From contig JALDTO010000266.1 in NCBI GenBank assembly GCA_023515725.1, positions 993,043-1,057,042 on the forward strand: DNA of 64,000 bases, read 5' to 3'. The stretch's first letter is position 1. Every line of letters begins with the position of its first letter. Shown here one piece after another: positions 1 to 62,291 of this stretch. The position numbers and the translations under genes are program-made. The DNA is from Amoeboaphelidium protococcarum X5 (Eukaryota; Fungi; Aphelidiomycota). The notes beneath the pieces were generated by a model that saw only the letters and a program-made list of their open reading frames with translations, was not told where the DNA came from and did no database searches.

Positions 1-2
1 AG

Positions 3-1415
3 AAAATCAGTGAAATATACGACTTGAAATATCTTGAACTCAAGATAAAGCCTTTTGAACACAGTTTCAGGGACTACAATGAAGAAGAATAGAACTAAGA
101 GAAAGAGTATAACTTTTTCAAAATGGCAGACAAATTCATAGAACTTTATGGTGATAGATTTTGTATTAGTGGAGGTATCTTATTCTACAAGAACGATGAC
201 GACTTTTGGATTGAAGACTCAGAATAAGGTTATCTCAATTCTTTTTTGACAAAATCCAAATTTTACAAAGAAGTGAATGAAGATTCTTAGGTGTTTGAAC
301 ATTTAGTAAATTGTGATAAATTTTACCAACAACTTAGAAACAAGATGATTATAAAGTAAAAGGATAGAGCATTTTAACCAAATCAACAACTCTTAAAGGA
401 CAATGAAATTAACACCTTTCCAGGATTTACACATCCTACTAATTTACAAGTAAATTCAAGTGAGATTCAAGAATTCATTGACCTTGTAATGAACTAAGCT
501 CAAGGTGATTAAGAAAGATTTGAGTTTTTAATGAAATGGTACGCCAACGTATGTAAAGGTAATAAAAATGAGACTTGTATCATACTGTTTTCCGATACTC
601 AAGGGACCGGAAAATCTTGTGTGAGTCAGTATATTGGATAAAAGCTTCTACCTAAATTCTTTTACTAGACAAGTAATATGGAATCTGTGTTTTCAAGATT
701 TAATGATACGAGGGACTAGAAACTCTTGATACTTTTGGAGGAAATATCAGCTGGTCATAAAGGATTTAATTAGATTTTGAAAGATGCCATTACTAATTCA
801 CATATGAGTATTGAAAGTAAAGGTAAACAAATTTTTAGAACCAACAATTTGAACAACTTTGTCATTACTAGTAACGAGTACTTACCTGTGAGAATTGAAC
901 AAAGTGATAGACGTTTTAATGTGTTTAAGGTTGATGAACGACTTACAAAGGAATAACTTAGTGAAAGGATTGAAAAGATACAAGCTGAAGAATACTAATA
1001 AAAAGTGTTTAGTTATCTTTACAATTACGATACAACAGGTTTTAATCCAAGACAGTGTTTTAATACTACTGAAAAAGAGGAAGTTTAAATTGAAAGCACA
1101 AGTGTTTCCAAGTTTTTTCATAGTCTCAAGACTGAATTTGTAGAAATGTTGAATAGCTGTATGTATGGAGATTAAATTGACGAGAAGTAAAGATAAGATT
1201 TGATTAGTTCAATGGACAATTAAACCCAGACATTGAAAATGACCAAAACATAGTTATACAGTTTTTACGAGTCATACCTCAAGACTTACAATTTGAAATA
1301 CAAAGTTGAAGAACGTGGTTGGTTTTTTAGAAAGATGAGCAAAGTAAAAGGTATTAATACCAAAATAACACGAACAACTGATGGGGTGAGGCTTATAGAA
1401 GTATAATTTGAATGA
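3..1415 (+). CDS. 5'-truncated D5-like / NrS-1-type superfamily 3 helicase (primase-helicase or TVpol-helicase C-terminal part) of a viral/mobile element
   Basis: Single TGA-free frame from window start to TGA 1413-1415 with TAR=Gln. Walker A SDTQGTGKS (GTGKS 603-617), Walker B LLILLEE (723-743), motif C FVITSN, Arg finger SDRRF (903-917), plus INTFPGF and FLMKWYA segments typical of this helicase family. Confidence 0.85.
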
Positions 1416-1454
1416 AACCACTACAATCCACACCAACCTCAACACAATGACAAA

Positions 1455-1486
1455 CCCCGTAGTGAATTTACTGCGGGGCTTTTTTT
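1455..1486 (+). terminator. GC-rich hairpin followed by T7 tract, candidate 3'-end signal of the helicase gene
   Basis: CCCCGTAGT-GAATTT-ACTGCGGGG-C-TTTTTTT, 40 nt after the helicase TGA. Confidence 0.45.
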
Positions 1487-1497
1487 ATTACTGTGAA

Positions 1498-1782
1498 TGA
1501 AAGGTGTAGTAGTAGTATTTTTACTCCTTAAAAGTTTGGTTGGTTTGGTTGGAGGTTTTAATTTTGGTTGGAGGCTACTAAAATCATTTCCCCGGAAGTG
1601 AAACGTGTAGTAGGAACTTTTTACTCCTCTAAAACTTTAATATTTTAACCTCCAACCAAACCAACCAAACCAACCAAAATACTATATAGTATAAAATCAA
1701 AATGATTACTACTTCTTTTTTTTTTATAAACTTGTTTTTTTATATTTTTAAAGAATAAAAATTTTGGTTGGTGGTTGGAGGC
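1498..1782. repeat. Iteron-like direct and inverted repeat block (GGTTGGAGG / CCTCCAACC)
   Basis: Perfect 24-bp inverted repeat 1534-1557 / 1647-1670. GGTTGGAGG occurs at 1547, 1566 and 1773, with its reverse complement at 1649. Imperfect direct repeat TGAAA(G/C)GTGTAGTAG...TTTTTACTCCT at 1498 and 1599. Confidence 0.8.
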
Positions 1783-1882
1783 TGGTTTTGAGATTCTTAA
1801 CATTTTAAAACCCGCGATTATTTTTATTTTTAATTGAGCTTTTGAAAAATAAAATTGAGTAAATGTTATTTTTTTTGTAGAC

Positions 1883-1936
1883 TGACTCAGTCCGATAGTC
1901 AGTTTGTATATACAAACTGACTATCGGACTGAGTCA
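1883..1936. repeat. Perfect 54-bp palindrome (27-bp arms, no spacer)
   Basis: TGACTCAGTCCGATAGTCAGTTTGTAT|ATACAAACTGACTATCGGACTGAGTCA, arms checked base by base. Confidence 0.95.
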
Positions 1937-2585
1937 CCCTGTCGCCAATGATGTTTCTGCTCAGCTTGCTCTGGTGGATGAACAAATACTTCTCTCTGGA
2001 AGCTTCAATCTTGATATCCAACACCTGTTGCATATGAGCATTCAAAGCATCCAAGTGATATTACGCCGCAACAGCAGGCCCAGTTTCAGAGCACGGCGAG
2101 ACACGAGCAACGGCAAAGTATTCATTATGCTGGAGATGATGAGGCATCATCCCAAACATTAGCAAGTCCTTGTAGATAGTATACTCTTATTTCTATCCAC
2201 CTTGCCAATTTGCTTCTTTTAGGAAGAAATACTTCCTGCCATCAACCACAAGCCACAGCTGCTTATCCTCGGCATTTGGCTTCAACGAGCGCATGTAGCT
2301 CTCCAAATGCGTCTCTAGTAGAGACTGAGGACACTCACCGATATCTCCGCCTTGTTAACTTCTGGCAATAGACCTTTCCAATTTTTGTCGAAAGTACAAG
2401 GTGGAGTAGCCATAGTAGCATATAACATATTAGAATGAATTTAAGATTTAGCCATCATCTTCGGCATCTTTAGCCTAGAAATCCTGGTCGCCTTTATCCA
2501 AAATTTACACAGGATGCAAATTAGATCATTGATTATCGCTGGGTGGCATAATTCTATGGAATATGTCATTCAACAAGATCACCAT
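1899..2585 (-). pseudogene. Disrupted hypothetical gene running into the palindrome
   Basis: ATG 2585, one in-frame TGA at 2526-2528, then ~208 open codons (TAR=Gln) ending ...IIGDRVTQSDSQFVYTN* inside the palindrome. Confidence 0.5.
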
Positions 2586-2825
2586 GGCTATGAAGAAATT
2601 TAGCACTTCACTCTAAAATCATGTGCAAACAAACAATGAAAAAGGGAAAAAAACGTTTATGGAAACCTTGAAGAGAAAGGTCAAAGGCATTACAATTTGA
2701 AAAAAGTCTTTTTAAAAAACTTGTTCCTCAAGTATTAAATGCTATCAAAATAATGAAACGCAAAATATATTTTGTCAAGATTCAATATTATTAAAACTGA
2801 TATGGGAATAGATAATGCAGATTAA

Positions 2826-52426: not shown

Positions 52427-52671
52427 CAGTGTGATTTTAAGAGTAATAACCATAATGTGTGGATCCGCACATTCTTCGTACAGTTTCAGCTCAGAAAGCG
52501 TGGATCCACACATTGTGCATTTAAGCCGGTATCTCACTGAGAACATCTAAATTTGACATATAATGTATTCATTGTATTTATGAGCATAGTATAAAGTATA
52601 AGAACTTGTTGAAAAGTGATTTGCAGTGCGATTTTAAGAGTAATAACCATAATGTGTGGATCCGCACATTC
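52427..52671. repeat. 48-bp direct repeat (52427-52474, 52624-52671) containing a near-palindromic core, plus a partial third copy at ~52498-52516
   Basis: CAGTG(T/C)GATTTTAAGAGTAATAACCATAATGTGTGGATCCGCACATTC occurs twice with one mismatch. The core AATGTGTGGATCCGCACATT is self-complementary apart from one G-T pair. Confidence 0.85.
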
Positions 52672-60575: not shown

Positions 60576-61053
60576 ATTGATTTGACCCTAAAGACAGTTG
60601 AATATAAAAGTTAACTATTACCAGTAGTTAAATAAAGCAATTATTATTACCGGTATATTCACAACTGAGTGAAAGGAGAAAATGTTCGACGAGAAAGAAT
60701 AACGAACGAACGACCAGGCGAGCGTTTCAATATGCTGTACAGTATGTTTCAGATGACGAGGGAGGTTGATAGATGTAGAATTATGTGAAAGGGTAAATGA
60801 ATGCGTGCAAAGAGAAATAGTTCCAAATGATTTTCCCGGTGGCCGTTTAAAAAGTAAAGAAAGAAGTGGAGAGAAAGAGAGAGAGAAGATATAGATGGCG
60901 TGAGTCTTAAAGATACAACTATTGAAAATGACGACAATATAACTTGATGGTACCGTAAAACTACAAAAATTCGCGCGTTAAAATGGGTACAAAACCGAAT
61001 CATATTGAAAACATAATGATGATATTATCATGGATCATTAAAGAGTGATTTTT

Positions 61054-62291
61054 TCACTACTACACCTTGTTCTTTTGCATTCGAGTAGACATGAACCAGT
61101 TGCTGGCGAAAGCAAATGAATCGAATACTAAATCTCCCAGCGTACCCATGAGACGCGTCAGAAAGCGAAACTATACTCCATACATGCCCTGTATTCCGAT
61201 ACAGTAACGGGTGGCCGGTACTCTACTCTCGATGGCATCTCTCGCGGCAATGGCAACAAAAGAAGGCGGCGTTGATACAGAGCTAATAGTCTTGTAGAAC
61301 TGAGTAGCCAATGGTATCCACTGACTGTAATACTTGAACTTGTCGCTACTTGGATCTTTCTAAATACTGGCTATCCATCCATCGTCCGCAGCACTGGAAC
61401 TCTTTTCAATCAATGGACTATAGACCATACCTACATGATTTTTACCGCCAAAATGAATAAATATTAAGATAAAGTTAAACAGGCTCAAAATACTTACCTG
61501 GTTAGATGGAAGAGACAGCAATGCCTTGAGGCTTCAATTCTTGGCGCAGTGCATCGACAATAGCCTCCAGTGCATGCTTACTGCTCGAATAAGGACCGAA
61601 CGTGGCCAGGGATATAACACCGGCAATACTTGAGGTGAACACAACGCGTGGACTATACTGAGTATCTGCAGCAGTCTTACGCAGCACCGGCAGGAAGGCT
61701 TAAATCATGCGCAGAGCACCAAACACGTTAACATCGTACATATCCTACATTGTTTTGACATCCATCAGCTCCACAGGCGTAGGATTGTGTACACCAGCAT
61801 TACTCACTAGACTGACTAAGGCCATATTTTCAGTGCTGCACACCTTCTCAATTTACTGCTTGGCCTTGTTGATTTGATCTTATTTAATTACGTCGCATAT
61901 TAATGGCATAATCTTGCCTACAAATAACTAGTCAGAAGTAATTCAGGTTTAGCGATTAAGTTTTAAAAGTGATAAAAGTACCTTTAGGATGGATGTTCTT
62001 GTTCATCGCCTTCAGATCAGATACCAGAGCATCGCCATCGGACTGCTTTCTGACACAAGCGAAGACTGCGTAACCCAGAGAGGCTAGGTAAAGACTCATC
62101 TCCTTACCAATTCCAGTGCTCGATCCAGTAATCAACACAGCAGGCTATGGCGCAAAATTCTTTACATCCGTAGAGGTGGGATTGAATCGAGGTACAAGTC
62201 CAGGAAGAGCATAACTTAGTACAAGATACAGTACACCTCTCGCAAACAGCAGCGACTGGAACAGAGGAGCAAACAACAATTCGGTACCCAT
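61054..62291 (-). CDS. Short-chain dehydrogenase/reductase (retinol/17beta-HSD-like), introns 61918-61981 and 61431-61497
   Basis: [23 protein letters not shown] catalytic motif, DALRQEL. Confidence 0.9.

Follow-up and report, generated by a model that had tools for sequence, protein, structure and literature searches.

The closest described systems are the palindrome-tipped endogenous virophages (subtypes 1, 2, 5 and 6) and polinton-like virus (PLV) subtype 4 of Halocafeteria seosinensis (bioRxiv 10.64898/2026.07.28.741278). According to the accessible parts of that preprint, 52-nt palindromes sit at the tips of their terminal inverted repeats (TIRs) and are linked to non-pPolB replicases and RVE integrases; the non-pPolB replicases lie near one end, and the TIRs of PLVs average 485 bp. 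Hairpin priming is proposed there for the palindromes, with accidental annealing as the alternative. Replicases that join a TVpol (PolA) domain to an SF3 helicase are described for PLVs and virophages, among them Sputnik V13, OLV25 and cryptophyte PLV cluster C1 (PMC3671162, PMC12220804). A virus written in its host's TAR=Gln code has already been published: the endogenous viruses of Streblomastix strix use the TAA/TAG=Gln code of their host, in a survey that, by its accessible text, left out NCBI Fungi (PMC10120064). PLVs are also reported from chytrid genomes such as Spizellomyces, and the available passages of that preprint mention neither recoding nor palindromic ends (10.64898/2026.06.19.733378). 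Independent replicase modules have been suggested (10.64898/2026.10.13.758929). Aphelids are not mentioned in the accessible text of PMC13533422 and PMC11633385, and no polinton-like element of aphelids came up in the literature searched, most subscription journals being outside its scope.

How does the locus studied here compare? The window is a 64,000-nt stretch of DNA, and its first 1936 positions are one end of a multi-copy mobile element in host DNA, probably an endogenous PLV or virophage resident in a TAR=Gln host. Like the Halocafeteria elements, it has a tip palindrome (54 nt here, 52 nt there), a non-pPolB replicase near one end, a likely TIR near 500 bp and a GC content below that of its host. 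The combination of a tip palindrome of about 50 nt with an adjacent non-pPolB replicase is that of the palindrome-tipped virophage and PLV subtypes; a 54-bp palindrome and a likely SF3 helicase fusion at this end leave room for a pPolB further upstream. For the elements of Halocafeteria, a stramenopile, capsid genes, RVE integrases and target duplications are documented, at least as their preprint describes them; in our element all of these would lie outside the window. The host here is a fungus-related TAR=Gln organism and the gene is recoded. The likeness is one of description, not of sequence comparison. Like the known TVpol-SF3 replicases, the SF3 helicase is preceded by an apparent PolA-type domain end, but it shares only about 30% identity with the nearest protein, and the PolA catalytic motifs would lie outside the window. 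It resembles the published Streblomastix viruses in being a viral gene in its host's TAR=Gln code, although the host lineage is unrelated, and the chytrid PLVs in being a PLV-type element of an early-diverging fungal lineage. The features are collected in Table 1.

Table 1. Coordinates of the element end and its flank within the window
Feature	Position	Strand	Basis
Predicted 3' part of a primase/polymerase-SF3 helicase gene	3..1415	+	470 codons, 22 TAR=Gln, TGA stop
Likely C-terminal end of a PolA/TVpol domain (residues 11-22)	33..68	+	Profile match, 8.3 bits
ATPase core	603..914	+	Invariant or nearly invariant columns, 50-protein alignment
Walker A	603-614	+	50-protein alignment; motif name from established knowledge
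Walker B Glu	741-743	+	50-protein alignment; motif name from established knowledge
Motif C Asn	873-875	+	50-protein alignment; motif name from established knowledge
Arg finger	912-914	+	50-protein alignment; motif name from established knowledge
Likely terminal inverted repeat, ~508 bp	1429..1936	.	Contigs of X1, X2 and X6
Possible transcript end signal: hairpin of 10 pairs, then a T run	1455..1478	+	1 found; shuffles mean 0.5, weak
Inverted array of TTTGGTTGG/CCAACCAAA repeats	1534..1670	.	Repeat search
Perfect 54-bp terminal palindrome, last base the element end (TGAGTCA)	1883..1936	.	Palindrome search, folding, public contigs
Host target DNA, continuous in empty alleles	1937..2610	.	Public contigs

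Read with NCBI table 6, the replicase gene is a single frame that is open at the window edge, its start codon absent within the window. At its composition, 470 TGA-free codons are expected with a chance of 3.5e-5. The first-pass annotation had described a frame of more than 470 codons; the long open frame stands, its length being exactly 470. The TAG at 90 and the TAA at 96 are where it had placed them, and the frame ends in TGA, as it had said. Pfam matched a single family, PF19263 DUF5906 (E 1.3e-16), and PHROGs five, three of which are named DNA primase. The PDB matches were only two sequences, 6k9c and 6k9e ('Primase', E 5.6e-14), which we take to be the NrS-1 helicase. Query residues G203, K204, E247, K260, N291 and R304 occupy the six invariant columns of a 50-protein alignment. 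We assign these columns, from established knowledge, to Walker A, Walker B, motif C and the Arg finger; all of these motifs had been called intact earlier, and they do look intact, within a DUF5906-type domain. We conclude that the gene, with the hallmarks of an SF3 helicase, is predicted to encode an NrS-1-type, D5-like one. Neither Pfam, PHROGs nor the PDB gave a match to a cellular ATPase, the outcome that the annotation itself had named as counting against its reading.

The best of 11,180 library matches to this helicase, P0025, is a protein of 718 aa with 31% identity, aligned over query residues 5-431. A "longer" protein search returned nine proteins, all of them distant, and tblastn against phages returned 151 records, all below 60% identity (24-27% among the ten listed). 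Helicase scans confirmed as relatives 0 of 6 candidates on viral contigs, 0 of 83 on metagenome contigs and 0 of 46 on prokaryote genome contigs, and no short gene-call fragments covering residues 1-45 were found. An alignment scan collected 38 distant viral loci. When 27 ORFs from seven of these were scanned, one, at locus L006, was an A32 ATPase beside the distant helicase.

Is the helicase fused to a TVpol primase-polymerase? The annotation had noted that its first residues resemble the C-terminal end of TVpol domains. Scored against a profile of 22 PolA/TVpol domain ends from which P0025 was left out, the first 25 residues gave the match entered in Table 1, which none of the 485 shuffles scored (of 500) reached; the best non-overlapping window had 2.7 bits. 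The 22 ends were chosen with a profile partly seeded by P0025, which makes this test not fully independent. P0025 itself carries, upstream of its helicase, motifs that we take to be PolA/TVpol-like, while Pfam found no PolA/TVpol-type domain in it. By comparison with P0025, about 265 residues of our protein are expected upstream of the window. In a quick tree of 72 helicase domains, the query grouped with P0025, P0058 and the AEP-type P0026 (SH-aLRT 87, not starred), and TVpol proteins were scattered; the tree does not settle TVpol versus AEP for the query. The Atlas neighbour clusters of P0025 are viral, mostly Preplasmiviricota, and a search for a viral locus carrying P0025 confirmed 0 of 12 candidates. 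From 12 residues and the motif labels given above, we consider a fusion to TVpol likely, in agreement with the annotation.

We then compared copies of the gene. A variant contig in run X2 has 71 differences from the window over 1-1224, 37 of them listed, and another in X1 has 12 over 1150-1378, all 12 listed; the differences listed are the best supported ones, not all. Among those listed, 33 of 49 fall in third codon positions, and 34 of the 44 changed codons are silent (19% expected), two of the silent changes being TAR/CAR swaps. TAR makes up 22 of the 36 Gln codons in the helicase and 160 of 303 in six host frames (P=0.38). With its in-frame TAR codons, silent-biased changes and TAR/CAR swaps, the gene bears out the proposal that a virus-like replication gene is written here in the TAR=Gln code of its host, and we conclude from these sequence comparisons that it is under selection in that code. 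Because it contains 22 in-frame TAR codons, the element would be confined to recoded hosts. Such confinement would make it a host-range marker for a parasite of standard-code algae, given the host identity that we infer below. The differences between copies cluster in blocks (window 370-416 and 605-788), and which of the two X5 follows, variant or window, changes from block to block. This block pattern suggests recombination among copies.

Where does the element end? Public contigs from 7 of 14 listed runs (X1, X2, X5, X6, X7, X10 and X11) were compared with the window; X1 and X2 are one sample, possibly the window's source. X7, X10 and X11, from three studies, carry an empty site: their contigs match the window from 1937-1940 on, and the letters before this point differ from the window and resemble one another. 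The X7 empty-site contig has 0 differences over 1937-2048. In X2 and in X6, an unrelated freshwater run, the palindrome leaves at 1936 and 1937 into two other flanks. The window's own junction is present in an X2 contig (1907-2521, 0 differences) whose element side is 30 letters long, one fewer than the 31 that the bridging rule demands, and no contig among those listed spans helicase to host. X5 holds the helicase and terminal region at 95-98% identity and reaches 646 bases past base 1, with no junction among the rows listed. One more loose end in X1, before 1880, represents a further junction or else the interior of the other end. X10 and X11 have no cover over the helicase, which by itself proves nothing. 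The element is thus integrated in host DNA with a defined end at 1936. An endogenous element had been proposed by the annotation, with an empty-site allele as one thing to look for, and both are now found. Its proposed long-term residence is not datable; the insertion at this site is a recent, polymorphic one.

The palindrome at this end consists of two perfect arms of 27 bp, while elsewhere in the window no perfect arm is longer than 9 bp, and none of 200 shuffles folded as well. The full palindrome is not on every end: one other copy ends without it at the inner TGACTCA (1889), joining right after 2610 in a diverged copy of the host locus (X1, X2), a junction at which X7, X10 and X11 are empty. 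This end in the other host-locus copy lies only about 670 bp from the window's insertion point. Local hopping or a hotspot could underlie this second end nearby. No target common to the flanks of the element ends was apparent by eye. The palindrome pattern had 0 matches in metagenome collections, and a looser pattern found nine viral loci, which carried neither the helicase nor a long palindrome. No comparable palindrome was present in the 38 distant helicase loci, where the longest arm was 15 bp (L001). The Halocafeteria preprint, in the parts available, does not decide whether the palindromes at such element ends have a function or arise by accident when DNA breaks (10.64898/2026.07.28.741278). 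Since the same fixed end recurs across insertions, our data favor a programmed palindrome over an accidental one; the same palindrome with the same end base, in different samples and in an unrelated host lineage, likewise favors a programmed hairpin end. Together with the likely TIR, the palindrome is the most informative part of the element; the annotation had named neither.

The likely TIR starts 14 bp after the helicase stop and is AT-rich and variable between copies, X1 showing a tandem duplication and X7 a deletion; element GC is 30%, versus 41% for the host. In X1, X2 and X6, contigs agree with the window only from 1429 onward; what precedes this point is another sequence, common to the three. 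Such a shared loose end is what a recurrence of the segment at the element's other end would produce, and we regard the segment as a likely TIR, seen at one end only; derivatives with another interior would look the same in contigs. For the window's allele in X1, depth was 77.5 at the helicase end versus 167 at 1492-1745, which fits a twofold repeat, while the X2 value of 85.5 at 1492-1745 does not fit the twofold expectation, and in both runs contig depth is not copy number, as the tool warns. With the same reservation, variant helicase contigs are covered about three to four times as deeply as contigs from single loci. Within the segment, the TTTGGTTGG/CCAACCAAA array has 32-bp arms, 91% complementary and 73 bp apart, with a further copy at 1763; there are seven copies in 1535-1771 versus one in the other 62 kb. 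The TTTGGTTGG array is a candidate helicase-loading origin. CCAACCAAA occurred at 24 loci in viral collections, none with a helicase or TVpol match, and was not clustered behind the helicase in the 38 distant loci; given these negative searches, the origin reading is without outside support. Rfam gave 16 matches, all of them hairpin look-alikes below gathering scores, and no RNA dataset was among the runs listed. A weak inverted likeness (74%) of window 61038-61068 to 1501-1531 was not recovered by blastn and is likely chance.

Perhaps the element is not a virus at all? The sequences themselves show the helicase, its code, the silent-biased change between copies, the end at 1936, the empty sites and the other junctions. 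The virus assignment draws on one end; a double jelly-roll capsid, A32-like packaging ATPase, integrase, far end and target duplication would precede base 1. Of the two genes that mark a Maverick/Polinton proper, protein-primed PolB and rve integrase, the window contains neither. A capsid-less self-copying transposon, consisting of a TVpol-helicase with or without an integrase between palindrome-tipped repeats and moving alone or with the help of full viruses, fits all the mobility evidence (empty sites and junctions) equally well. We rate it a possible though less probable account. Repeat-bracketed PolA/AEP modules may move independently, according to available passages of one preprint (10.64898/2026.10.13.758929), and capsid-less remnants in Halocafeteria are described as keeping their TIRs (10.64898/2026.07.28.741278). 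Several close relatives of the helicase come from contigs that are only 3-7 kb long, although such short contigs are common. However, a TIR of about 500 bp with a replicase at the genome end is typical of full PLVs, as the latter preprint describes them (10.64898/2026.07.28.741278), and P0025 occurs on contigs up to 24.7 kb with viral Atlas neighbours. Both readings stand. In a more specific form, which we consider doubtful, a capsid-less TVpol-SF3 transposon with hairpin-forming ends, fully in TAR=Gln, would now be spreading through the populations, both wild and cultured, of a fungus-related parasite. It would replicate by hairpin priming, and one terminus would offer two alternative joining points. 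If true, it would be a minimal replicon linking polinton-like viruses to transposons.

Two other explanations are far less probable. Giant viruses persist in zoosporic fungi, some with polinton-like integrases (PMC13533422, accessible text), and 2 of the 30 Atlas matches of P0025 are Nucleocytoviricota clusters. Could the window begin in a fragment of an integrated giant virus, Mycodnaviridae-like or from other Nucleocytoviricota, with the helicase as its D5 gene? Pfam matched neither D5_N nor PriCT-2 in the 470 residues seen, the upstream part lying outside the window. Moreover, the N-terminal residues fit a PolA end, and one sharp end and one short terminal segment are common to several copies; we consider this origin very unlikely. 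An assembly chimera, in which DNA of a free virus or co-cultured organism was joined to a host contig and the palindrome is a hairpin-end artefact, is equally improbable. With a repeated end, an assembler might have combined this flank with the wrong interior, and under the 31-letter rule none of the listed contigs counts as bridging the junction. Nevertheless, an X2 contig carries the last 30 palindrome letters into host DNA letter for letter, the same end meets other flanks in X2 and the unrelated X6, and TAR usage in the gene matches that of the host frames. The chimeric join that the annotation had named as a danger to its reading was thus not found.

We conclude that the element is real, mobile and recoded. 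By analogy, its mode of action is probably that of the palindrome-tipped endogenous virophages and PLVs. Once the element is excised, its helicase, likely fused to a TVpol primase-polymerase, would load onto the array of TTTGGTTGG repeats. Folded into a hairpin, the palindrome may prime or resolve the replication of the ends, taking over the role of a terminal protein. Joining of the TGASTCA end to host DNA, with little preference for particular targets, would then fall to an integrase whose gene lies outside the window. Both end points (1936 and 1889) finish in CA, and ends in CA recall rve integrases. An rve-type enzyme, expected to leave a target duplication, is slightly favored, with a tyrosine recombinase, expected to leave none, a serious if lesser candidate. 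PolA replicases are reported to correlate with tyrosine recombinases and not with DDE integrases, in the sections available (10.64898/2026.10.13.758929). The earlier description of a self-replicating DNA element holds as to a virus-like replication gene on a mobile integrated element, self-replication being what we infer from these. Because there are filled as well as empty sites and the host is apparently available from more than one sample, direct tests of excision, end structure and target duplication are feasible.

The host is likely an aphelid. This assignment draws on the neighbouring genes and on the TAR=Gln code, which Amoeboaphelidium protococcarum, an aphelid, is reported to share with other lineages (PMC11687900, in its accessible text). 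In table 6, the neighbouring frames are ordinary eukaryotic genes (protein kinase, PEPCK, USP7, V-ATPase d and KARI), and 9 of 12 have a Pfam match. KARI is closest to the mitochondrial enzyme 7toc, presumably fungal, and V-ATPase d to subunit d1 entries.

A 208-codon open frame on the minus strand (window 1902-2525) runs on across the empty site. The insertion is not shown to lie in a host exon: only 4 of 19 changed codons in this frame are silent, and it had no Pfam match and no meaningful PDB match. A single-sequence structure model was useless (pLDDT 34). The frame may be a fast-evolving gene or a pseudogene. X7, X10 and X11 each carry two versions of the host locus (1937-2610), one near-identical to the window and the other about 86-93% alike, a pattern that a hybrid or duplicated genome would give. 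Farther into the host DNA, a small intergenic repeat of 48 bp is present at window 52427-52671 as two direct copies and an inverted partial copy.
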